NCBI RefSeq assembly: GCF_003019035.1
Contig: NZ_CP027447.1
Origin: Escherichia coli
Lineage (GTDB): Bacteria > Pseudomonadota > Gammaproteobacteria > Enterobacterales > Enterobacteriaceae
DNA length: 64,000 bases
Direction: 5' to 3' (one strand)
Shown: in pieces, positions 2,614 through 58,584 of the stretch
Layout: each line of letters opens with the position of its first letter
Position numbering within the stretch: the first letter of the stretch is position 1
Made by a program: the position numbers and the translations under genes
The notes under the pieces: generated by a model
The model's input: the letters and a program-made list of their open reading frames with translations, nothing else
The model's database searches: none
Told to the model about the DNA's origin: nothing

Positions 2614-3423
2614 TCACCCCTGCAATATTTTGTCCATCACGCGCCCCGGCAGCAGGCGCTTAAGCACCATTACCGCCCAGGTCACCAGCGTTACCGGATA
2701 GCGCATCTTCGGCTTCTCGCTAATAAAAGCATGGCGCACTTTGCCGACCACCGCTTCCGGTCCCAACGTAAAGCGGGCGGCGATGCCGGGATTTTCGACT
2801 GGTTTATCACTTTGCGTCTGGTTGACGTTGTCGGTGAAGCGAGTACGAATGGGACCAGGTTCGATCAGGCTAACTTTAATTCCGCTGTGACGTAGCTCCA
2901 TGCGCAGTGCGTCTGACCACGCCTCCAGCGCATATTTACTGGCCGCGTAAGCGCCACGACCCGGCGTGGAGATTAATCCCATCACCGATGAGGTCATCAC
3001 AATACGTCCTTCACCGTGCGGTAACATCGCGGGTAACAGGCGCATGGTGAGCTGGTGTGCGCCGAAAAAGTTGGCGGAAAACTGCTGTTCCATCTGCACA
3101 CGGCTGATGGTGGAAAGGGGGCCATACATGCCGAATCCGGCATTGTTAAAGATCCCATACAGACAATTATCGGTCAGGGCGATCACTTCGTCGGCTGCGC
3201 GATCAACACTTTCTGGTGAATCCAGATCGATCAACACGCCGGTAAATCCCATGCTGTTCATGCGCTCAACATCATCCGCTTTCCGGCAACCTGCCAGCAC
3301 ATGAAAACCCTGGCGTTTTAATTCGAGCGCGCTTTCCAGGCCAATTCCACTGGAACATCCGGTAATTAAGACCGATTTTTGCATAACTTTACCTGTCAGG
3401 ATCTCCGTTGCTTTATGAGTCAT
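2614..3423 (-). CDS. ybbO: Short-chain dehydrogenase/reductase YbbO
   Basis: 269-aa ORF with SDR glycine motif TGCSSGIG and YxxxK active-site pattern. Confidence 0.85.
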   Translation of the reverse strand: MTHKATEILTGKVMQKSVLITGCSSGIGLESALELKRQGFHVLAGCRKADDVERMNSMGFTGVLIDLDSPESVDRAADEVIALTDNCLYGIFNNAGFGMYGPLSTISRVQMEQQFSANFFGAHQLTMRLLPAMLPHGEGRIVMTSSVMGLISTPGRGAYAASKYALEAWSDALRMELRHSGIKVSLIEPGPIRTRFTDNVNQTQSDKPVENPGIAARFTLGPEAVVGKVRHAFISEKPKMRYPVTLVTWAVMVLKRLLPGRVMDKILQG

Positions 3424-9096: not shown

Positions 9097-10206
<1,110 letters not shown>

Positions 10207-48452: not shown

Positions 48453-50676
48453 TTTCGGACTCCAGTTGCGCAACCTTTTCTGTGTTTAAACCTGCTTTGA
48501 GTAATAGTGATTGCATCGAAACTTGTAATTCGCGTTGAATTGTCAGAACGCGATCCAACGTTTCCTGGCTGATAACGCCTTCGGTGACCAAAAACTTGCC
48601 GAGCGGCAGAGAACTGCGTTCATGGCGCAATAACAACACGTTAATTGCTGAACGATTAATATGACCGAGCGTGGTCAGTATTTCGGCGAACAGGAACTGA
48701 TGCGGCACATATTGCCGCCAGATTTCACCGGCCTGCTGTTCCGTGAGCCACTGATGCTGAACCGCATTGTACAACATTGCCCGCGGATCGTGACCGCGTC
48801 GGCGCGCATACCAGTGGCGTAACCCCGTGACAATTTGTCCCCGCAGAACAATGACGTAACGCACTTTGCGTCCGACTTTACGCGTCAGGGCCGCCAGCGA
48901 AACCGGGTCAATACCATCTTCACTGCCGACAATTAACTCATCATTTTCCAGACGCAGCGGCAGCACTGCATAATGCAGCGCCACGGAGGCCGGCATCTCG
49001 GCAATCAGTGATGAAGGGATCTGCCAGGCGTCGATCGACTCCCACGCCACGCCGTTTTGCTCTGCCAGCGCCTGTGCCAGCTGCTCGGCGCTAATCAGCC
49101 CCTGCATCAGCATTGAACCGCCAAGGCGTAGACCTTCGACGCGATTACGCAGTGCTGTATCGAGTTGTTCTTCAGTGATGACCTGATTTTCCAGCAGAAT
49201 TTGACCTAACGGGCGCAACGAGCGGGTATCGCCAGTCACGCTGGGGAAGTCATGCGTTGTTTTATCCCACGCCACGCGACGTGGATCGCCGTGTTGAAGT
49301 ACCTGTTTTAACGCGCGCCAGTTGGCCATGAAGTTAATCAGGTTGCCCCAGAAAAGACGCAGGACAGATAGTAGCCCCTGCGTCAGGCCGTAGTAGCCAG
49401 TGACGAAAATCACCCGCTGCACGATGCGGTTAACCATCAAGCCAAAGTTTAGCCACAGCAGGGTCATTAACCATGCGCTGCCGCTGAAAATAGAAAGGAA
49501 ATGCCAGGCATCGGGCCACAAACTTTCATACGCCAGTAACAGCAAAAGCTGGATCATCACCAGCATCGCGAGGAAGCTGACAAAGTTACTGATTGCCCCT
49601 TTGCGGTCGCGCCAGAGAAAGTAGTTCAGCGTCAGGCTGGAGGTCCATTTGTGGGTTTTAAAGCCCTGGAAAACAATGCCGATGATCCAGCGAGATTTTT
49701 GTCGAACCGCCGTCGAAAAGGTATCGGGGAAATATTCGCGCACGCAGATCATGTTTGACGTCCGCGCGTGCTGTAAAAATTTACGCTGCTCGCGTTCTTT
49801 GGCTTCGTCCACCACCGGAAAACGGACAAAAATTTCCGTCATACCTTTTTCTTTCAGGCGGAAACCAATGTCGTAATCTTCAGTAAGACTCTGCACGTCG
49901 AAAGCAATACCGTCACCGTCAGCTAACAGTGCGGTCACGGCGCGGCGGCTGAAACAAGTACCGACACCTGCGCTGGGCACCTGTCCGGCGAGGGCTTCAC
50001 GCACCGGAACATCTTTGCCATGCAGTTCTGAAAACTCATCAATGTAAGTCATGCTGGTGAAGTGCGTCCATTCGCGTTCGAATGGGTATACCGGGATCTG
50101 AATCAGATCTTTACGCTCGACCAGATAGTTGAACAGACGCAATTCCATCGGTGAAATTACGTCTTCGGCGTCATGCAGAATAAAACCAGCAAAAGCGAAA
50201 TTGGCGCTACGCTCAAACTGGGTGATGGCGTCCAGCACGTTGTTCAGGCAGTCGGCTTTGCTGGTGGGGCCAGGACGCGCGCAGACTACCTTATGCACGT
50301 TTGGGAAGCGAGCGCACACTTCGTCAACATCACGCTGAGTATCGGGGTCGTTGGGGTAGGTGCCAACAAAGATATGATAGTTTTCATAGTCGAGCGTGGT
50401 CGCCGCCAGCTCGGCCATATTGCCGATGACGCCCGTTTCATTCCACGCCGGAACCATAATCGCTAACGGTTTTTCATCTGGTTTATACAGTTCGCGGTAA
50501 CTCATTCGCGGGTAGCGGCGATAAACACTCAACTTGCGTTTAATGCGGCGTACCCAGTAGACGACATCAATAAAAAAATCGTCCAGCCCGCTGATGAACA
50601 TGATGACCGCTAACGTTATCGCGATTACTTTTAAGCCATATAGCCAGGTTGCAAAAACATCAAGAAGCCAGTCCAC
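48439..50676 (-). CDS. nfrB: Inner-membrane family-2 glycosyltransferase NfrB (phage N4 adsorption protein B)
   Basis: 745-aa ORF with N-terminal TM segments and glycosyltransferase domain; overlaps nfrA start. Confidence 0.85.
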   Translation of the reverse strand: MDWLLDVFATWLYGLKVIAITLAVIMFISGLDDFFIDVVYWVRRIKRKLSVYRRYPRMSYRELYKPDEKPLAIMVPAWNETGVIGNMAELAATTLDYENYHIFVGTYPNDPDTQRDVDEVCARFPNVHKVVCARPGPTSKADCLNNVLDAITQFERSANFAFAGFILHDAEDVISPMELRLFNYLVERKDLIQIPVYPFEREWTHFTSMTYIDEFSELHGKDVPVREALAGQVPSAGVGTCFSRRAVTALLADGDGIAFDVQSLTEDYDIGFRLKEKGMTEIFVRFPVVDEAKEREQRKFLQHARTSNMICVREYFPDTFSTAVRQKSRWIIGIVFQGFKTHKWTSSLTLNYFLWRDRKGAISNFVSFLAMLVMIQLLLLLAYESLWPDAWHFLSIFSGSAWLMTLLWLNFGLMVNRIVQRVIFVTGYYGLTQGLLSVLRLFWGNLINFMANWRALKQVLQHGDPRRVAWDKTTHDFPSVTGDTRSLRPLGQILLENQVITEEQLDTALRNRVEGLRLGGSMLMQGLISAEQLAQALAEQNGVAWESIDAWQIPSSLIAEMPASVALHYAVLPLRLENDELIVGSEDGIDPVSLAALTRKVGRKVRYVIVLRGQIVTGLRHWYARRRGHDPRAMLYNAVQHQWLTEQQAGEIWRQYVPHQFLFAEILTTLGHINRSAINVLLLRHERSSLPLGKFLVTEGVISQETLDRVLTIQRELQVSMQSLLLKAGLNTEKVAQLESENEGE

Positions 50677-50799: not shown

Positions 50800-52110
50800 T
50801 ATAAAAGTTGCCGATTGCGTAGAATGTAGACAAAAGCGTGGTGTCAAGGAGGGGAGGGTAACGCAGGGAAAGATTACGAAAGCCCGCTCCCCGCAAGGAC
50901 TGACGCCAGATAGTTTCTGTCCATGGCTGCTTTTCGCATCTTACGTCTTAACCCTGCCTTGAATACCTTATCATTCGTCAAAATATTAATAGCGATGTGC
51001 CGTATCCCTGAAAATAATTCTGCTGCATTTCCTCTTCTTATTTTGCAGTCGTCTTCATTCATTACCACGTCCAGACGCCAGTGCAGCTTATTCTCCACGT
51101 GCCAGTGGTTTCGGATTGCTGTGGCGAACTTCTCTGCGGTTAAATCAGCAGAACTGATATAATATCTGACCGTCATTTCGGGCTCTTTCTTTTGTTCTGC
51201 TATTATTGACCGAAAGGAGACTGCCACGCATAATTTCTTCAGACCTTTCCATTCAAACGTGAAATCAATAAGTTCATCAGGGACATCGCAAACAATGTGA
51301 AGACGGATTTCTTCTCTGCCGTGACTCTTTTCACTCATTGCGTAACTGTCATGCTCTGGATTATTTAATTCTTTCAGCGGAAATTTTTCCTCGAAGGCTT
51401 TATTTAGCCGCCCCTGGTTTCCTTTTACAGCGAATAAATAATCACCTCCCTGTTTTTGTATCTTCTCTGCAATATCTTTCTGGCAACCCATCGCATCAGT
51501 TGTGATGATTTTTCCTTTAATATCCAGCATGTTAAGAAGTTCTTGGATAGCTGTAATCTCATTGGATTTCTCATCCGTCCTGATCTGTCCGATGACCAGA
51601 CTATGCATTGTTGAGAACGCACTAATGACATGAATCGCTCCCTTGCGGCGACTCTTGTCATAAGAGTGCCGGAGCGTTTTTCCATCAATTGCAATGACGC
51701 CTTTATCATCTGAAGAATGGCAGTCACGCATCCAGTTAATAAAGCACTCGTGAAATTTTGCAGGACTGATACAGGATACAACTCTGGCAATGGTATCGTG
51801 AACAGGAATACCATTTTCAAAATCACCATATTGCTTCAAAAAATCGAGATGTGTTTCCCCAAAATCCTCTATATCTTCCCAGCCTTCTGCACCAGAAATA
51901 ACGGCACAAATAGTCAACAGTAGAATATCCGACAATTTATGTTCCACTTTCCAGGCTTGTCTGTACTCGGGAATAACAGAAATATGTTCTATCAATTTTT
52001 TAAGTACCATTTTGTTCTCCTTAATTATGTAAGGAGTATTTGATCATGTATAAGCAATAAAAAACAGCTTCAGGTAATGAGGAATATCTCAATTTTTAAA
52101 CATAAAATGC
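50800..52110 (-). mobile_element. ISAs1-family insertion sequence (H-repeat element); ends approximate
   Basis: Single 378-aa transposase ORF in a unit of about 1.3 kb wedged between the nfrB promoter region and an Rhs fragment; inverted repeats not resolved by eye. Confidence 0.4.
50874..52010 (-). CDS. ISAs1-family transposase (H-repeat-associated protein)
   Basis: 378-aa [55 protein letters not shown], typical of H-rpt/ISAs1 transposases; SD AAGGAG. Confidence 0.85.
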
Positions 52111-52117
52111 GAATTAT

Positions 52118-52834
52118 TTAGTACAAAAAAGCAGCGTTACGTGATCTTTCCCTGTGTAATCCCCCAGCTAAATCATGAACTTTTTGAGCCATTTTACTTA
52201 ATTCAGGGCAGGCTCCTAAACCTAATGGATCTGTGAAGCAACACGGATTCAGCACATAACCATAAGTGTTTAGTCCACCCAATACACCCAGGGGGTCACT
52301 CACCAGATACATCCCGGTCTCCGGCTCGTAGTACCGGAACCGGTTATAGCACAGCCCTGACTCCGCATCCCGCCACTGCCCCGCATACAGCAGACCGGGG
52401 TCCGCTTCTGCGTCTCGCTCCCCGCGCGGGTCCGGGTAGTCCCTGTCTGCGCTGACGCTGAGTGCCAGCCCCCACAGGCTGGTCTGCTCCGCACGCCACA
52501 CCACGTTACCCTGACTGTTAAAGAGCATCACCGGGCGGCCTGTCAGGTCGCTTACCGCATGGCTGGTCCGCGTCACCCACTGCGGGGCCACGGACGGGTG
52601 CGGCTGCCGTACCCGGCTGAACTGCTGGCTTATCAGCTCAAAGCCGTTAAACACCAGGTACCGCACACTGTACAGTTTATCATCGCGGTATTCCCGGATT
52701 TCCGCAATAGTGTCGCCGTCCCACAGATATGTGATGCGGAGGGCTTTTTGTTTGCAGCGTTTCTCTGTCCGTCTGCCACTGGCGTCGTGGCAGTATTCCC
52801 ACTGCTCACCCCGGGCGCTGCGGTAGCCGATCAC
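52118..52834 (-). pseudogene. Orphan Rhs core-extension/C-terminal fragment, truncated
   Basis: GTG start without RBS; near-identical to residues about 1245-1450 of the upstream full Rhs through DPLGL, then only about 30 divergent residues before reading into IS-adjacent sequence. Confidence 0.6.
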
Positions 52835-52863: not shown

Positions 52864-53253
52864 TTATTTAATCCAGTAAGCTAATCTCTCACCAATCTTC
52901 AAATTTTCTCTTTTGTAATAAAATACAGTATCAAAGTTAATGGATATTTTTTTCGCAATAACTTTGAATTTCAATTCAAATTCCGAATAAAACTCTAATA
53001 CTAACATTTCACGAGCATTGTCAGTGCAACTTGATAGCTTAATAAACTCCTCATTAAGATCGCATGACCAGTCCATAACACCGCTAATATAGCATGGCGT
53101 GTCTATTATTATTTCCAGTGTGTGATAGTAAGAAAGGTCATCACTCCCGGAAATAATCAAGCGATTATGTTCATAAAGAAAAACTGAAAAATCCAACCAA
53201 CTTTCTTTCCAATTATGGTGCTTTATATCATTAATTATGTTTTGCTCACTCAT
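52864..53253 (-). CDS. Putative immunity protein for the Rhs C-terminal toxin
   Basis: 129-aa AT-rich ORF whose start overlaps the rhs stop (ATGA), the canonical toxin-immunity arrangement. Confidence 0.6.
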   Translation of the reverse strand: MSEQNIINDIKHHNWKESWLDFSVFLYEHNRLIISGSDDLSYYHTLEIIIDTPCYISGVMDWSCDLNEEFIKLSSCTDNAREMLVLEFYSEFELKFKVIAKKISINFDTVFYYKRENLKIGERLAYWIK

Positions 53254-56200
53254 GGAATAGTTCCTGTAGGCAATGGTATATGAGTATCATTTGCAGCTCC
53301 TGGATTATAATTCGGACTTTTAGTTTTCAAATCAGATGTATGATGCCAACTGCCATCAGGAGAACCATACTCCCAACCATAGCCTTGATTAGTCGCAGGA
53401 TTTGTTCCACTTTGGCTTCTACCAATCCTATATATGGGGCCATTGGCAGAATTACTCCCTGCTGGAGCAGTAGGGTTTACATCATGAGCCCTTACTTCAT
53501 ATTTATAATTTCCGACGGTGAATTTTTCTTTAAATTTTATAGGGTAGTTATGCCCAGACAAGCCTTGCCGATGTAAAGCATAATTTAACACATCCTGCGG
53601 TGAGGTATTTTTAATTGCTTGATGCGCTTGTGCTGCTGTCATACCTTGAGAACGATTGTATTTATACCAATCATACATCACAGGACATATAGCTAATCCC
53701 AAAGGATCAACATACCCCAGCGGATTAGGCACATACCGGTAAGTCTGCTCACCCCCCAGCAACCCCAGTGGATCACTCACCAGGTACATCCCGGTTTCCG
53801 GCTCGTAATACCGGAACCGGTTATAGCACAGCCCCGATTCCGCATCCTGCCACTGCCCCGCATACAGCAGGCCGGGGTCGGCTTCCGGGTCCAGCTCCCC
53901 GCGCGGGTCCGGGTAGCCGGTGTCTGCGGGCAGGCTGAGTGCCAGCCCCCACAGGCTGGTCTGCCCCGGTCGCCAGACGGTTTTACCTTCACTGTTAAAG
54001 AGCACCAGCGGACGGCCCGTCAGGTCGCTCACCGCATGATTCGTTCGCGTCACCCACTGCGGGGCCACGGACGGATGCGGCTGCCGTACCCGGCTGAACT
54101 GCTGACTCAGCAGCTCAAAGCCGTTAAACACCAGGTGCCGTACGCTGTACAGTTTATCATCCCGGTATTCCCGCATTTCCGCAATACTGTCGCCGTCCCA
54201 CAGATACGTAAAACGGATTTTCTTCCGGTCGCAGCGTTTTTCCGTCCGCCTGCCGCTGGCGTCGTGGCGGTATTCCCACTGCTCACCCTGTGCGCTGCAA
54301 TACCCGGTCAGCTGGTCCCGGCTGTCCCACCGGAACCGCTCTGTTTCCGGGCGGTAGCCGTCACGGTGTCTGGTGCGGCTGACCATCCGGCCTGCGGCGT
54401 CATAGCTGTAGTCTGTGTTTCCGGTCTGTTTCAGCCGGTGGCCGCGCTGATACATGTCAGTATCCACGCTTATCCGGTGCCTGCCCGCCGACTGCGCCTT
54501 CAGGTAGCCACAACTGTCATAGCCATAGGACTCATCGCCTTCGCCATAGCCCAGCCCGGTGCCTGAGGCTGTCACCGCCGTGACCTGGCCGTTCCGGTCC
54601 AGCCGGTACTCCCGCCGTGTTTCCCGTCCGTAGTCTTCCCGGCTGGTGACAGCCGACATATTGCCCGCGCTGTCGTAACGGTACTCCCGCACCAGTGAGG
54701 GGAGCAGTCCGCCCCATGTGGCTTCCGCCGGGAAAAGTCCGGCGCGCTGGCTGGTAAGCTGACCGGCTGCATTCCAGCCCTGCTCACAGGCAAAACCCCG
54801 GTTACTGTGCCGGAGCACTTCACGTCCTGCCTCATCACGGCTGAACGTCAGCGTCTCATCCCCCGGCAGGATAACCTCCGTCAGTTCTCCGGCGGCGTTG
54901 TAGCGGTAGGTGGTTTTCAGCAGGGATTCACCGGGGTGTCTGTCGCGTTCATCTTCCGGTGGCAGGATACAGCGGATGACGGTGTGTTCATCGGGGTGGT
55001 GGTATTCAATGGCCCGTCGGCCCTGAGTGGTGACATTCACCCGCCCGCGTTCGTCATAGCCGGTGCGCTGTGATGTACCGTCCGGGCTGAAGATACCCGT
55101 CAGCCTGCCGGATTTGTCATAGGCATACTGCGTTTTGCCTTCCGGCGAGATGACTTCTGCCAGGCGGCCTGCGGCGTCCCGGCTGTAGAGGATAGTTTCC
55201 TCCAGGCCGTTAACCCTGGCGGTACAAAGGCCATCGGCGTCATAGCGGTAACGCCAGACCACGCCGCCCCAGTCACGCTCTTCCGTCACCCGTCCACAGT
55301 TGTCCAGAATATAACGGTATGACTCGCCCTGCGGATTGATGACTTCTGTCAGTTGCAGCGTGTCTTTATCGTAGCGGTACTGCCAGCGGTGGCCTTCACC
55401 GTCCGTTCGCGCCACCGGCAAATCGAACGGGCCGTATTCCATCGTCCAGACAACGCCGTTGCCGTCCGTCCAGGCCAGCAGGTTGCCGTGGCGGTCATAG
55501 CGAAATCCTTCCGCGCCGGTGCCAGTGCGTTCAAGGCCGCTCAGTTTATGGTGCTGCTGCCACCGTAACCGCACTGACTGACCGCCGGGGCCGCGCATCT
55601 TCACCGGCAGGTCGTGACCGCTGTATTCGGTGTGGTGTTCACGGCCCATCACGTCGGTGAGTGTTTCCGGCCGGTTGTGGTGGTCGTACTCTATGCCCAG
55701 ACGCCGTTCATCCTGGCGGAATATCCCCGACAGCAGCCCCTGCGGCGTGTACGCCAGCCGGGTCTCTTCGCCCTGTGGCGACACCAGACTTACCGGCAGG
55801 CCGCGTTCATCACACTGCTGCGTCCACATCTGCCCGGCAGGGTCGGTGATGTTGCTGAGCAGGCCGCGCTCATCATAGCAGTACTGCCACTCCGCACCGT
55901 CTGCCGCCGTGTAACGGCTTAACTGACCGTGTGCGGCGTTGTATTCAAACTTCTCCACCCGCCCGGCAGGGGAGTGGCGGGCCAGCAGGTGATGGAATTC
56001 ATCCCATTCATACATGGTGGTGCTGCCGTCCGGCGCTGCTTCCCGCAGAATATTGCCGTCAGGATCATAGTAATAACGGTGAATGCCCTTGCCGTCCGTC
56101 ACGGTGGTGCAGCCGTCACCATAGTCCAGCGTGGCGTTGTAATAGCCCTCCGCCCCGGTGACGGTCACGCACCGGCCCTGTGCATCGTAGGTGAAACGGC

Positions 56201-58103
56201 TCCACGTCTGGTCGTTATCGGACCAGCGGATGATCCGGTCCGCAGCGTCGTACTCATAAAACAGGTGGTAGTCCAGCCGCGCATCCGCTTCTGTCAGCCG
56301 CCCCCGCGCATCCTGTTCGTAGGTCGCCAGCATCTGTATGCCGTTATCCGTACGGTGAATGGCTTTCAGGTAGCCGCTGGCATGGTACGTCAGTTTAAGC
56401 CGGATCCCGTCGGTGTGACTGACACCCATGATGCGGTACTGGCTGTCGCGCTCAAACGTGATGCGGTTGCTGGCGGTGTCGCTCATCCCGCCCAGCATGT
56501 ACATCCGGTCTGCGGGGCTGTGTGCCAGACGGTCATCGCAGGTATCGTCAGTCACCGGGTGGCGCAGGCGCATTCCCGGAAAGGCGTCATAAAAGAAGCG
56601 GCTGCTCAGTGCATCACGGTCGAACAGCTCCAGGTAATCGTCGCGGCGGCGCAGAATGTACTGGGCGTGATACGGGTTAACCGCCGTATCACTGTCACCG
56701 TCGAAGGCAAATCTCAGCGTGGTTCCCTGGCTGATGATATCCACCCGGTTTCCCTGTTCACGCACCCAGGCGTATTCGCTCCAGGAGTCGCTCCAGCCCA
56801 CGCCCGTCAGACCATGCAGCGGCAGTACAGAACTGTGGAAACGGGTGAAGGAGAGGGGGAGTGTCTGGCCCAGCGTAAAGTCGGTACGTTCGTCGCAGTA
56901 TGCGCCGGTTACCGGATCGACAGGATCTGTTACCCATCTGATGACTTTATTGGCAATACTTTTTAACGACTTACCTGTTTTCCCCAGCAACGCGCCGAGC
57001 TTTGCCCCCAGCAGCTTCCCGCTTTTCCCCAGCAGGTTTCCCAGTTTGCCGAGTTTCGCCAGATTCCCCAGTTTTCCCAGCAGTCCCGCGGGCGGCAGAA
57101 GATAGCTGGCTATCGTTATTCCCCCCAGGATCATTCTCTGCCACGGCGGGAACTCCGGCTGGATATCCAGATAGGTCACCTGTTCACCGCCAATAAAGAC
57201 GTCCGGCGAACCTTCCACGATTGCCGCGCTGCACTCCAGTTTGTCCCCTTTGCGTGCGGCAGTCTGATTGTTGATAAAGACGTTGCTGCTGCCCTGGGCT
57301 ATCCTCGGTGGTTTGTTCTCCTTGTCGCAGAGCGCCGTGTCCTCACCGGCTTCCGGGAAATCCACGTCTTTTTTGATTTCGCCACGCCCGCCCACCATGG
57401 TGGCAAACTCCATTAATACCGGACCGGCGGGAAACAGAAGCGATGCGCCGGCGCTGACGCGATCCATAATACCGGCATTGCTGTCCGTCAGGGTGATAAC
57501 AGCGTTCCCCCAGGCCTTCGCCAGTGGTACTGCTTTTTCCGCTGCCGATTCAAGCAGGTCAGTGGCAATATCACCCCATGAGGGTTCCCCCTGTGGTGGA
57601 GAGGGTATTGCTTCAGTCAGGGGAGGAGGGGGAAGGGTGACGGCGGCCCTGGCAGCGGGCTTTCCGTTAATGTTTACATTTTTAGAACCAGTATTGATGG
57701 CCCCGTCCGTGTCACAAAAACTGTTTATCCATGATTCAAGCTGGTTCTGTTTCTCCTCCACATAATCACTCGCCTTATAGCTGGCATACATCAGCGCAGG
57801 CACCAGAACCAGCGCATAAGGGCCGGTGGCACAGGCGGCCATAATCAGGCAACCTTCTGCGATGGTCACTATCGCCCCCAGCACGGCCCCTGCCAGCGCC
57901 CCCAAAAAACTCTTGTGCTGAATTTCATCGCCCAGCCTGGCTGCGGGGGGGCCAGACTTTTTTGATGCCAACATCTGTGCAATGGCTTTGTCGTTGGCTG
58001 CCCGTTTCATCTGGCTGGCGACCATCGCCTGCTGTGACAGCATTCGCATTGCCAGCGTACCGCCTGCGGTCGCTCCCTGTGGCCCGCCTGGTCCTTCACT
58101 CAT
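53250..58103 (-). CDS. rhs: prePAAR/PAAR-domain Rhs (YD-repeat) T6SS effector with variable C-terminal toxin domain
   Basis: 1617 aa; N-terminal prePAAR motif AARLGDEIQH followed by TM helices, long YD-repeat shell, core end DPLGL, then about 150 aa of unrelated low-GC sequence. Confidence 0.9.
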   Translation of the reverse strand: MSEGPGGPQGATAGGTLAMRMLSQQAMVASQMKRAANDKAIAQMLASKKSGPPAARLGDEIQHKSFLGALAGAVLGAIVTIAEGCLIMAACATGPYALVLVPALMYASYKASDYVEEKQNQLESWINSFCDTDGAINTGSKNVNINGKPAARAAVTLPPPPLTEAIPSPPQGEPSWGDIATDLLESAAEKAVPLAKAWGNAVITLTDSNAGIMDRVSAGASLLFPAGPVLMEFATMVGGRGEIKKDVDFPEAGEDTALCDKENKPPRIAQGSSNVFINNQTAARKGDKLECSAAIVEGSPDVFIGGEQVTYLDIQPEFPPWQRMILGGITIASYLLPPAGLLGKLGNLAKLGKLGNLLGKSGKLLGAKLGALLGKTGKSLKSIANKVIRWVTDPVDPVTGAYCDERTDFTLGQTLPLSFTRFHSSVLPLHGLTGVGWSDSWSEYAWVREQGNRVDIISQGTTLRFAFDGDSDTAVNPYHAQYILRRRDDYLELFDRDALSSRFFYDAFPGMRLRHPVTDDTCDDRLAHSPADRMYMLGGMSDTASNRITFERDSQYRIMGVSHTDGIRLKLTYHASGYLKAIHRTDNGIQMLATYEQDARGRLTEADARLDYHLFYEYDAADRIIRWSDNDQTWSRFTYDAQGRCVTVTGAEGYYNATLDYGDGCTTVTDGKGIHRYYYDPDGNILREAAPDGSTTMYEWDEFHHLLARHSPAGRVEKFEYNAAHGQLSRYTAADGAEWQYCYDERGLLSNITDPAGQMWTQQCDERGLPVSLVSPQGEETRLAYTPQGLLSGIFRQDERRLGIEYDHHNRPETLTDVMGREHHTEYSGHDLPVKMRGPGGQSVRLRWQQHHKLSGLERTGTGAEGFRYDRHGNLLAWTDGNGVVWTMEYGPFDLPVARTDGEGHRWQYRYDKDTLQLTEVINPQGESYRYILDNCGRVTEERDWGGVVWRYRYDADGLCTARVNGLEETILYSRDAAGRLAEVISPEGKTQYAYDKSGRLTGIFSPDGTSQRTGYDERGRVNVTTQGRRAIEYHHPDEHTVIRCILPPEDERDRHPGESLLKTTYRYNAAGELTEVILPGDETLTFSRDEAGREVLRHSNRGFACEQGWNAAGQLTSQRAGLFPAEATWGGLLPSLVREYRYDSAGNMSAVTSREDYGRETRREYRLDRNGQVTAVTASGTGLGYGEGDESYGYDSCGYLKAQSAGRHRISVDTDMYQRGHRLKQTGNTDYSYDAAGRMVSRTRHRDGYRPETERFRWDSRDQLTGYCSAQGEQWEYRHDASGRRTEKRCDRKKIRFTYLWDGDSIAEMREYRDDKLYSVRHLVFNGFELLSQQFSRVRQPHPSVAPQWVTRTNHAVSDLTGRPLVLFNSEGKTVWRPGQTSLWGLALSLPADTGYPDPRGELDPEADPGLLYAGQWQDAESGLCYNRFRYYEPETGMYLVSDPLGLLGGEQTYRYVPNPLGYVDPLGLAICPVMYDWYKYNRSQGMTAAQAHQAIKNTSPQDVLNYALHRQGLSGHNYPIKFKEKFTVGNYKYEVRAHDVNPTAPAGSNSANGPIYRIGRSQSGTNPATNQGYGWEYGSPDGSWHHTSDLKTKSPNYNPGAANDTHIPLPTGTIP

Positions 58104-58122: not shown

Positions 58123-58584
58123 TCAGCGCGGCTGGTCCTTTTGGATGTCATTCTCCGGTGGCAACGGGGTGAAGCTCTTTATCACCTCCAGCAGCATCGT
58201 CTTTTGACTGTTCTTCAGGGATAAGGAGGTGCTGAAAGTGAAGGTCAGCAGCGTATCTCCACGCCGCTGGAATACGGCTATCTGGCTAATCCGCCCCTGA
58301 TTCCCTTCATCTTCCGGACCGTTCCAGGAATAATCCAGCAGCCAGGCCGGGGCCTCTGCCAGAGTGATTTCCCGGCAGGCATGTTCGGTGTACCCATCAA
58401 GTTTGCCCTGGTACAGCGCCAGCGTTTCCTGGTACAGCTCTGGTGTCAGGGTTCCCTGTGGAACGGCTTCGCGGGTAATGACCAGGTTGATGCCACTGTT
58501 ATCTGTGGACACCAGGACCTGCATTGACTGATCCTGCCATTGAGACGGCAGTTGAATGTGGCCTTCATTAAAAGTGAACTGCAT
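58123..58584 (-). CDS. DUF1795-family effector-associated chaperone (EagR-like)
   Basis: 153-aa ORF between vgrG and rhs, the position held by Eag chaperones for prePAAR effectors. Confidence 0.75.
   Translation of the reverse strand: MQFTFNEGHIQLPSQWQDQSMQVLVSTDNSGINLVITREAVPQGTLTPELYQETLALYQGKLDGYTEHACREITLAEAPAWLLDYSWNGPEDEGNQGRISQIAVFQRRGDTLLTFTFSTSLSLKNSQKTMLLEVIKSFTPLPPENDIQKDQPR

Follow-up and report, generated by a model that had tools for sequence, protein, structure and literature searches.

The 5′-truncated orphan rhs fragment between cusS and nfrB of this Escherichia coli genome is very probably the decayed end of an orphan array, from which an MsddA-like toxin module and its immunity gene were deleted flush with a resident ISEc1 element. 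Of the 138 residues of the toxin, the window (i.e., the whole 64-kb stretch of DNA that was analyzed) retains the pre-catalytic N-terminal 21, and the orphan lacks a complete toxin domain as well as a cognate immunity gene. The stub is a non-functional remnant, a case of ordinary, already understood gene decay. The mode of its truncation was addressed by comparison with an intact homologue from Shigella boydii and with the same locus in 5426 complete E. coli genomes.

Genetic context of the orphan rhs fragment

All features described here are encoded on the minus strand. The boundary of the island is marked by the core-genome gene nfrB (48439..50676, supported by ORF and annotation), and the nfrB-cusS locus is E. 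coli Rhs locus 4 (Jackson et al, 2009; PMC2935791). The island contains a T6SS PAAR-Rhs row in operon-like arrangement, consisting of vgrG, the gene for an EagR-type DcrB/DUF1795 chaperone, and a prePAAR/PAAR-Rhs gene. The latter (53250..58103) encodes a full-length T6SS effector of 1617 aa with the architecture prePAAR-PAAR-DUF6531-Rhs repeats-Ntox30 (Pfam: RHS_repeat, 7.7e-76; PAAR, 1.4e-14; Ntox30, 1.3e-10; prePAAR_I); in 100%-identical genomes, its annotation is RHS repeat-associated core protein WP_022645327.1. A 129-aa ORF (52864..53253) overlapping the rhs stop had no match in Pfam or NCBIfam and is presumed, from its position alone, to be the Ntox30 immunity gene.

The orphan rhs ORF (52834..52118; 238 aa) is located directly downstream of this full-length rhs-immunity pair and starts 30 nt past the stop of the 129-aa gene. 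[quoted passage not shown] The core segment, likewise 5′-truncated (52244..52833), is homologous to residues 1265-1461 of the main Rhs and matched TIGR03696 (Rhs_assc_core, 1e-19). At the nucleotide level, 52833..52244 was 84.7% identical to 54310..53721 of the main rhs over 590 ungapped nt (blastn). At the protein level, 170 of 212 residues (80%) were identical to main-Rhs residues 1265-1476, colinear and without gaps through PxxxxDPLGL (BLASTP). The original prediction that the fragment follows the main core almost residue for residue up to DPLGL is therefore right with respect to colinearity but overstated with respect to identity. The boundary motif PxxxxDPxGL is present as NPCCFTDPLGL at orphan residues 196-206 (DPLGL, 202-206). 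After DPLGL, the orphan tip parts from the main Rhs tip (BLASTP), and at the core-tip transition the GC content drops from ∼0.61-0.67 to ∼0.33-0.41, i.e., the tip is of low GC. SCU-301, considered as a natural recombinant of main and orphan core, was ruled out as such because it has the same arrangement, in a frameshifted copy. Matches consisting of two pieces and 3811 bp were an artefact of joining across the repeated core, the structure of the locus being identical.

The orphan reading frame runs into an intact ISEc1 element

Elements of the ISAs1 family are ∼1.2-1.5 kb long and have short, imperfect terminal inverted repeats with CAGGG ends. The intact ISEc1-like element (H-repeat, ISAs1 family) adjacent to the orphan occupies 50864..52154 (1291 bp) and has CAGGG...CCCTG termini; CAGGGAAAGATCACGTAACG and its imperfect complement form terminal inverted repeats (16/20), the left one of which occurs once in the window (0 expected). 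Its ends were set by copies at unrelated loci, K-12 yhhI (at RhsB) and ydcC, both of which match exactly query 61-1351 (corresponding to 52154-50864) at ∼97%; homology to O157, starting at 50863, backs the right boundary. The yhhI copy of K-12/DH1, annotated as ISAs1-like element ISEc1 family transposase, is ∼97% identical at the nucleotide level over the 1291 bp. The intact gene for the ISAs1-family DDE transposase (50874..52010; 378 aa) encodes a protein that matched NF033564 (transpos_ISAs1; 415 bits, cut-off 70, 1.4e-124) and, in Pfam, DDE_Tnp_1 and DDE_Tnp_1_assoc, and 367 of its 378 residues (97%, ungapped) are identical to those of K-12 YhhI. An apparent extension of homology by 8 nt left of the IS (query 53-60) was rejected as fuzzy BLAST extension into unrelated flank (GGATGTATA versus GGATTACA), being neither a longer IS nor convincing microhomology.

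No target-site duplication was found at the IS of the window, the left flank being ...GGGGGATTACA and the right flank CGTTACCCTCC.... Duplications of 8-10 bp have been reported for some members of the ISAs1 family. Direct repeats are missing from the K-12 yhhI and ydcC copies, too, so that their absence is uninformative and does not argue against membership in this family. As these undisputed ISEc1 copies are without duplications, the feature was dropped as a criterion to distinguish insertion from deletion.

The tail of the orphan past DPLGL comprises 32 residues, 21 of which are native to the toxin (orphan residues 207-227, GACPELSKMAQKVHDLAGGLH) and 11 of which, like the stop codon, are encoded by the IS. 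At the DNA level, the native part is a toxin stub of 62 nt (52216..52155) specifying GACPELSKMAQKVHDLAGGL plus 2 nt of a His codon. According to sequence and frame, the last base of this codon, RERSRNAAFLY (orphan residues 228-238), and the TAA stop are contributed by the first 37 nt of the IS (52118..52154).

An intact homologue of the stub is present in Shigella boydii

A word-indexed protein search with the 40-aa tip returned no match; an exhaustive representative search identified an intact homologue (P0001) in S. boydii, encoded in the same cusS-nfrB island. P0001 matched the PF24174 MsddA-like family over 117 residues (1.7e-28; 100 bits, cut-off 27), which identifies the lost toxin as a 138-residue MsddA-like DNA cytosine deaminase. 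The toxin tip corresponds to residues 14-151 of P0001. The MsddA-like family consists of DNA cytosine deaminases that belong to polymorphic toxin systems (bioRxiv 10.1101/2023.06.29.547047). The motifs HAE (residues 102-104) and PCPHC (132-136) of P0001 are both located past the break. Stub and P0001 are 100% identical on the amino acid level across the 33 residues they share, and a tblastn search of the 64-kb window with P0001 covered its residues 1-34 only. The tip-specific DNA common to the window and the S. boydii deaminase orphan (52155..52298, including the DPLGL motif at 52231..52217) is 97.2% identical to L013 9496-9639 and 96.5% identical to L010 958-1101. This homology ends exactly at 52155, one base short of the IS, in agreement with the ends defined from yhhI and ydcC (52154 and 50864) and from the right flank in O157. 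The orphan ORF of the window, which ends before HAE and PCxxC, had no deaminase match in Pfam.

In the S. boydii loci (L013-L018), the gene order is cusS, vgrG, DcrB/EagR, PAAR-Rhs, orphans, ISEc1, nfrB. There, the same deaminase tip is an orphan as well, located downstream of a different main tip and without the 590-nt core stretch kept in the window. Seven nt downstream of it begins a gene for a protein of 182 aa (P0130), which had no family match in a profile search and is assigned as the putative immunity protein by position only. With P0130, tblastn gave no match in the 64-kb window, and stub and IS have no gene between them. Neither the remaining part of the toxin nor immunity DNA was present in any of the 5426 complete E. 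coli genomes, among them the 82 that carry the stub, and a back-translated scan of the GTDB species representatives for the intact toxin revealed no relative; beyond S. boydii, the deaminase module appears to occur only in a few E. coli drafts. In a Logan contig, the intact tip is preceded by a TNT-type tip with its 79-aa immunity gene, both of which were unmatched in complete E. coli genomes.

Because only 21 of 138 toxin residues are left and no immunity gene, the copy in the window is a remnant rather than a functional orphan module, and because these residues are pre-catalytic, the enzyme cannot be made. The stub is thus unable to give rise to toxin or to confer immunity and is passively carried; its recombination with the main rhs core would yield only a toxin-less Rhs. 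That the 32-residue tail is instead a genuine short functional peptide or toxin, for which no immunity gene was ever lost, has a vanishingly small probability: it is an open reading frame and nothing more, 11 of its residues and its stop codon are IS sequence, its 21 native residues are the N-terminus of the deaminase with the catalytic motifs gone, and PGAP calls the fragment a pseudogene.

All elements of the original prediction were found on the minus strand, close to where it had placed them; the start of the span it gave (50800) lies 64 nt outside the right IS end (50864). The ∼30 residues after DPLGL were counted as 32, with the IS starting at 52154 and its left end, hence, inside the orphan ORF; the transposase gene next to it is intact; and the absence of a cognate immunity gene was borne out both between stub and IS and across the window. 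The orphan tip does lack almost all of its toxin domain as well as the immunity gene, the break falls, to the base, on an end of an ISAs1-family element, and the intact counterpart is no mini-toxin of 30 residues but a deaminase of 138 residues with its own gene downstream.

Junctions of the IS differ between lineages

The same prediction held that the module had been cut by insertion of the IS, and this part did not stand. To the right of the IS follow a 45-bp remnant of the nfrB-proximal island end (50819..50863; homology to island-less K-12 starts at 50818 and that to O157 at 50863) and then the normal upstream region of nfrB, the start of which is 187 bp from the right IS end; toxin or immunity sequence is not contained in this flank. 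Furthermore, many E. coli and Shigella lineages have the IS at the same nfrB-proximal site and never had the stub junction. Insertion into an otherwise complete orphan module would account for the coincidence of the IS end with the break in the ORF. It is nevertheless extremely improbable, given that island terminus and nfrB upstream DNA, rather than toxin or immunity sequence, form the right flank, that no further toxin or immunity sequence was found in the window (tblastn) or in complete E. coli genomes, and that stub-less lineages have the IS at the same position. The right flank and the shared IS site therefore point to an IS-associated deletion of ∼3.9 kb, or to a second IS copy followed by IS-IS recombination.

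Compared with the S. boydii array, the window is missing L013 9640-13571 (∼3.9 kb), flush with the left end of the IS, and another 71 bp immediately at the right end; type-A lineages have a further 68-71 bp between the 45-bp remnant and the IS, which are missing in the window. Apart from deaminase and immunity gene, the larger segment also includes a further Tox-MPTase4 orphan module. At least 2658 of the 5426 complete genomes have the IS at the nfrB-proximal position, and at least five distinct left junctions are flush with the IS end: at L013 13571 (S. boydii/ECSC054; 831 genomes), 13256 (O157; 317 genomes), ∼11158 (strain 405), 9639 (this window; 82 genomes), and 7297, which is inside the main Rhs (FDN-11/O121; 379 genomes). 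The left-flush deletions at this island measure ∼0.3, 2.4, 3.9, and 6.3 kb, in addition to the 71-bp right-flush one; each of the four counted junction classes comprises 82 to 831 of the 5426 genomes, and in some lineages the main effector itself was removed. In the MSHS 472 lineage, the deletion enters the IS itself, to IS nt 384; deletions not catalyzed by the IS therefore occur at the cusS-nfrB locus, too.

One mosaic IS allele is common to the window, O157, FDN-11, and O121, which speaks for repeated trimming next to one resident IS, as opposed to several independent insertions. The left 25-45 nt of the IS are of the ydcC type in the window and of the yhhI type in S. boydii; because of this different allele, the S. 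boydii array serves as a model for the ancestor and is not the literal one. The mosaic might also be explained by insertion of a ydcC-type ISEc1 into the deaminase tip and its subsequent recombination with the resident copy, whereby 3.9 kb would have been lost and one chimeric IS left behind. Over its first 150 nt, the IS in the window is identical to a ydcC-type copy, and from nt 339 onward it agrees with the type resident at the nfrB locus at 24 of 27 diagnostic sites. A ydcC-then-resident pattern is what a crossover product is expected to have, and no transposase-mediated deletion chemistry would be needed. We nevertheless consider this route rather unlikely: O157, FDN-11, and O121 share the switch point (nt 273-339) despite their different left junctions, for which one pre-existing allele is a simpler explanation than three to four crossovers that each independently hit the same interval of 66 nt. 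Moreover, no two-copy intermediate bracketing orphan DNA was present in the loci examined, and the 71-bp right-flush loss would be left unexplained.

The exact stub is carried by 82 of the 5426 complete genomes, always in one place per genome and only at this locus; MS6198 and FDAARGOS_497 are examples of stub-carrying strains. Copies of the orphan core variant at least 99% identical exist in only 81 genomes, and identity to every other E. coli Rhs core is at most 88%, which suggests a foreign origin. Accordingly, the stub-IS junction could have formed elsewhere, be it a different Rhs locus or a different strain, and been imported by homologous recombination, with Rhs core and ISEc1 serving as arms. 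As several Rhs elements have ISEc1 at their distal end (e.g., RhsB of K-12), it does constitute portable homology. Still, such an import is improbable because none of the 82 carriers has the stub at any other locus and because the intact S. boydii module sits in the same island.

Discussion

The history that we consider very probable, deletion next to the resident ISEc1, can be sketched as follows. The orphan would formerly have been an Rhs C-terminal module with an MsddA-like DNA cytosine deaminase, followed by the 182-aa immunity gene. Everything from the last base of toxin codon 21 onward (HAE, PCxxC, the immunity gene, and the Tox-MPTase4 module; ∼3.9 kb) would then have been lost, the edge of the deletion being the left terminus of the ISEc1 copy resident at the nfrB-proximal end of the island, such that the reading frame would from there on run 37 nt into the IS and stop. 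We infer that the orphan itself arose by C-terminal displacement. Displacement by tip replacement, which the original prediction also invoked, is the standard model (Jackson et al, 2009; PMC2935791), and it fits the situation in S. boydii, where the deaminase orphan is located behind a different main tip.

The deletion may have been catalyzed by the IS via intramolecular transposition of its left end (adjacent deletion). Since transposition of H-repeat/ISEc1 elements has not been observed experimentally (PMC3032704), it is only from the end-flush junctions that we infer such catalysis. A literature search for mechanistic data on ISEc1 found none and returned mostly papers on ISEc10 and ISEc12. 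To our knowledge, ISEc1 has long been held to be transpositionally silent. ISEc1 might nevertheless be active now, or have been so recently, and repeatedly trim Rhs orphan arrays, in which case it would have produced at least four independent left-flush deletions at cusS-nfrB as well as the 71-bp right-flush one, a tentative proposal to which we assign slightly less than an even chance. If true, trimming by ISEc1 would explain how modules are lost in the course of Rhs toxin/immunity turnover and would be the first, albeit indirect, evidence of end-directed deletion activity of the ISAs1 family in E. coli.

As a pseudogene remnant, the stub is of small direct importance. It did allow the lost cassette to be reconstructed, an Rhs tip with an MsddA-like DNA deaminase plus a 182-aa candidate immunity protein, and enzymes of this family currently attract interest with regard to base editing and methylome sequencing. 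The stub without immunity gene is present in ∼1.5% of complete E. coli genomes (82/5426), including ST648-type strains, which should therefore be sensitive to kin still deploying the deaminase toxin. Beside the building of Rhs orphan arrays, their pruning becomes visible here, with an IS at the far end marking nested deletions, some of which inactivate the main effector.

The S. boydii homologue resembles MsddA-like toxins (PF24174; analogous to the interbacterial deaminase toxins DddA and SsdA) in having HAE and PCxxC and in its Rhs context, whereas all that is left in the window are the 21 N-terminal residues that precede the catalytic motifs. Displaced Rhs C-terminal tips, or orphans, are known from the work of Jackson et al (2009; PMC2935791) and as orphan rhs-CT/immunity modules of Salmonella and E. 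coli (e.g., PMC3150448; PMC7043789). The fragment shares with them the partial core colinear with the upstream rhs, the PxxxxDPxGL boundary, the divergent tip of low GC, and the position right after the main rhs-immunity pair at the nfrB-cusS locus. Unlike them, it has a tip of 21 residues whose immunity gene is gone, which makes it a remnant and not a reusable cassette, and a core that is unusually divergent (≤88% to other E. coli cores).

Adjacent deletions mediated by an IS are classical for IS1, IS10, IS903, and Tn3-family elements. The situation in the window is similar in that one endpoint is fixed at the IS terminus while the other varies, the IS is intact, and no target duplication is present. 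For the ISAs1 family, we know of no demonstration of adjacent deletion, and the evidence provided here is comparative only. A structural parallel concerns H-rptB, i.e., yhhI of the K-12 RhsB element: the IS of the window has the same length (1291 bp) and termini, is likewise located at the far end of an Rhs element, and, with its left end, likewise truncates the neighboring ORF. In K-12, this neighbor is a HEAT-repeat gene after yhhH, whereas in the window it is the toxin tip itself and, unlike for H-rptB, the chromosomal site shows a series of end-flush junctions across lineages.

The orphan rhs fragment of the cusS-nfrB island

All relevant genes of the island are on the minus strand. In gene order, cusS is followed by vgrG (60513..58612), a gene for a DcrB/DUF1795 EagR-type chaperone (58584..58123), the gene for a prePAAR-PAAR-Rhs effector of 1617 aa with an Ntox30 tip (58103..53250), its presumed immunity gene (129 aa; 53253..52864), the orphan rhs fragment ORF (52834..52118), an ISAs1-family transposase gene (52010..50874) and, beyond it, nfrB (50676..48439). 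Since cusS and nfrB are side by side in K-12, the vgrG/rhs island of the window is an inserted one; it corresponds to the nfrB/cusS site listed by Jackson et al, 2009 as Rhs locus 4 (PMC2935791). Over the 2.8 kb surrounding the orphan, the chromosomes of FDAARGOS_497, MS6198, ECONIH1, and others are 100% identical to the window, and strain ST648 is 99.9% identical. The tip of the main effector is an Ntox30-family domain (window 53250-53700; Pfam, 1.3e-10); the 129-aa ORF partnering it (52864-53253) matched no Pfam or NCBIfam family.

The orphan (nt 52833..52244) aligns with the main rhs gene (54310..53721) at 84.7% identity without gaps; at the protein level, 170 of 212 residues (80%) are identical to main-Rhs residues 1265-1476, through the PxxxxDPLGL boundary. 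The original prediction of an almost residue-for-residue core match therefore holds for colinearity, but its wording is too strong for 80% amino acid identity. The ∼30 divergent residues that it placed after DPLGL were found, 32 being counted up to the stop codon. GC content is ∼0.61-0.67 in the core but ∼0.33-0.41 across the tip and the IS; a fall from core to tip is the usual Rhs pattern. PGAP annotates the orphan as a pseudogene without either terminus. Among complete E. coli genomes, its core stretch (52299-52833) is at least 99% identical only within those carrying the stub (81), every other Rhs core in them is at most 88% identical to it, and no full-length parent gene of this core variant is known in that collection. 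The 3′ core of the main gene is 92-97% identical to Shigella boydii cores. The layout of the orphan fits the C-terminal displacement model (PMC2935791), although the orphan may have been imported as a fragment.

The left end of ISEc1 lies within the orphan ORF

To place the IS ends, the IS with 60-nt flanks was compared with 5426 complete E. coli genomes. Its copies elsewhere, at the unrelated loci yhhI (at RhsB) and ydcC, matched exactly query positions 61-1351, corresponding to window 52154..50864. The element is 1291 bp long, ∼97% identical to the yhhI and ydcC copies, and has the termini CAGGG...CCCTG with imperfect terminal inverted repeats (16/20). Independent support for the right boundary comes from the flank from 50863 onward, which is common to O157:H7 and like genomes, and for the left boundary from an intact toxin homolog, with which the shared DNA stops one base before the IS. 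Because the left end is placed by both the yhhI/ydcC copies and this homolog, it lies inside the orphan ORF and not outside the fragment. The native tail comprises residues 207-226 plus two of the three bases of His227 (GACPELSKMAQKVHDLAGGL(H)), and the final RERSRNAAFLY and the TAA stop of the orphan ORF are encoded by IS nt 1-37. The transposase is intact (378 aa; NF033564, 415 bits; DDE_Tnp_1 and DDE_Tnp_1_assoc) and 97% identical to K-12 YhhI.

The 11 nt outside each terminus (50853-50863 and 52155-52165) are partly inverted-complementary (7/11), which may have arisen by chance or from a preference for palindromic targets; judged from other copies, they are not part of the IS. At nt 12-25, ISEc1 left ends are of two types, ydcC-like (CACGTAACGCTGCT) and yhhI-like (CATCAGAAGTACAC), between which the nfrB-proximal copies are split (window and compared loci L004, L006, L007, L009, L013, L019, and L020).

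The lost toxin belongs to a deaminase family

While a word-indexed protein search with the 40-aa tip gave no match, one strong match, P0001 (151 aa), emerged when 1.84 billion representatives were searched exhaustively with HMMER; its cluster members are S. boydii proteins. Over the 33 residues that they have in common, P0001 and the stub are 100% identical, and P0001 continues for 117 more. It matches Pfam PF24174 (bacterial deaminase MsddA-like; 1.7e-28, 100 bits versus a cut-off of 27) and contains the zinc-binding motifs of the deaminase fold, HAE (102-104) and PCPHC (132-136). MsddA-like enzymes are DNA cytosine deaminases of polymorphic toxin systems (bioRxiv 10.1101/2023.06.29.547047). 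The intact homolog that the original prediction proposed to look for was thus recovered, together with a 182-aa gene downstream.

In S. boydii chromosomes, the deaminase module occupies the same island as the stub: cusS, vgrG, DcrB, and a PAAR-Rhs gene with a TNT-type tip are followed by a 79-aa gene, the deaminase orphan, P0130 (182 aa, beginning 7 nt past the toxin stop), an Rhs fragment and a Tox-MPTase4 orphan (682 aa), ORFs of 69 and 103 aa, ISEc1, 71 bp, and nfrB. The same deaminase tip is an orphan there as well, behind a different main tip. P0130 matched no Pfam or NCBIfam family; its position suggests that it is the immunity protein. Window 52298..52155 corresponds to 9496..9639 of the S. 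boydii reference locus L013 (97.2% DNA identity) and ends one base before the IS, where ...GGGGGATTACA continues as TGCGCCAGA in the intact sequence and as CAGGGAAAG in the window.

The window codes for P0001 residues 1-34 only and for nothing of P0130, which bears out the predicted lack of a cognate immunity gene. The stub is carried by 82 of the 5426 complete E. coli genomes, every match comprising the 144-nt stub only; none of the 5426 contains toxin body or immunity DNA, which argues against a conserved 30-residue toxin with an immunity gene of its own. Devoid of any catalytic residue and of an immunity partner, the stub is best regarded as inert. Salmonella orphans can recombine with the main core; if the stub did so, Ntox30 and its immunity gene would be swapped for a 32-residue tail.

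Probable deletion from a resident IS

The original prediction held that the tip was cut by IS insertion, which the flanks contradict. Right of the IS follows not the rest of the toxin but 45 bp of island terminus and then the ordinary nfrB upstream region, homology to island-less K-12 beginning at window 50818. Measured against the array of S. boydii, 3932 bp (L013 9640-13571) are missing from the window flush with the left end of the IS, as are 71 bp flush with its right end. A large share of E. coli has ISEc1 at this nfrB-proximal site; a query spanning the IS-end-to-nfrB junction matched over at least 80% in 2658 genomes. Sequence comparison thus supports an IS-flush deletion that started from a resident IS over an insertion. 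The lack of direct repeats at the window's IS has no diagnostic value, since such repeats are missing from the yhhI and ydcC copies of K-12 as well.

In S. boydii, O157, O121, FDN-11, ECSC054, and MSHS 472, the right end of ISEc1 is separated from the 'cgttaacc' island terminus by the 71-bp segment (68 bp in O157; L013 14863-14933; L004 8933-9000). The segment is absent from the window (50819-50863) and from strain 405, and its loss has the look of a further end-flush deletion, this time at the right terminus of the IS.

When stretches of 400 nt adjoining the left IS end at nine loci were mapped onto L013, the left junctions formed a nested series with the IS terminus as common endpoint: 13571 in S. 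boydii and ECSC054 (831 genomes), 13256 in O157:H7 (317 genomes), ∼11158 in strain 405, 9639 in the window (82 genomes), and 7297, within the main PAAR-Rhs gene, in O121 and FDN-11 (379 genomes). The E. coli draft L022 (GCA_012448725.1) has the IS at L013 ∼11182. As the junction truncating the main Rhs gene occurs in 379/5426 complete genomes, the effector of the island is inactivated in many strains.

Individual loci differ in what was kept. In O121 WL1277 (L007, 7096-9003), the ISEc1 left end truncates the main PAAR-Rhs effector near residue 630, and L006 has the same junction. Of the deaminase toxin, L022 (9603-11414) has just the final 18 codons, but the 182-aa candidate immunity gene persists there at 98% identity; such an immunity-only orphan mirrors what is left in the window. 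In MSHS 472 (L003, 7826-9037), a deletion that starts in the DcrB gene reaches into the IS, up to IS nt 384; nothing remains of the Rhs effector or the orphan array, and the cut DcrB/EagR gene is fused to ISEc1 without its first 383 nt. This deletion is not flush with an IS end, so deletions of that kind also happen at the locus. In the orphan array of strain 405 (L008, 6968-7053), a solo 86-bp piece of the ISEc1 left end adjoins a fragment of a PAAR domain; the complete nfrB-proximal ISEc1 follows 2 kb downstream. The solo piece may be the scar of an earlier IS event.

Retention of an intact IS, one terminus of which is a constant endpoint while the outer endpoints vary, is the classical signature of IS-mediated adjacent deletion; to our knowledge, this has never been shown for ISAs1. 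Alternatively, but less probably, a second ISEc1 copy inserted and IS-IS recombination deleted the intervening DNA. Such a course would agree with the mosaic appearance of the window's IS: its first 150 nt are identical to those of a ydcC-type copy, and from nt 339 on, 24 of 27 diagnostic sites are those of the resident nfrB-locus type. However, O157, FDN-11, and O121 have other junctions and yet the same switch interval (nt 273-339), so that the mosaic is more simply one pre-existing IS allele, trimmed repeatedly. Adjacent deletion is weakly favored over IS-IS recombination, both being IS-associated deletions. According to the literature, H-repeat transposition has not been observed (PMC3032704), and catalysis of the deletion by the IS hence remains presumptive. 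More tentatively, ISEc1 may be an active, recurrent trimmer of Rhs arrays.

Relation to known Rhs elements

It is classical for an H-repeat/ISEc1 to sit at the distal end of an Rhs element and truncate the adjoining ORF, and orphan Rhs tips and their decay are already well described. New here are the exact IS ends, the family of the lost toxin, the candidate immunity protein, the support for IS-flush deletion from a resident IS, and the nested deletion series at the cusS-nfrB island. At K-12 RhsB (L019, DH1/K-12, 2654-3004), the left end of the yhhI ISEc1 truncates a HEAT-repeat ORF after yhhH; the arrangement is the same as in the window, an IS end cutting the last cassette.
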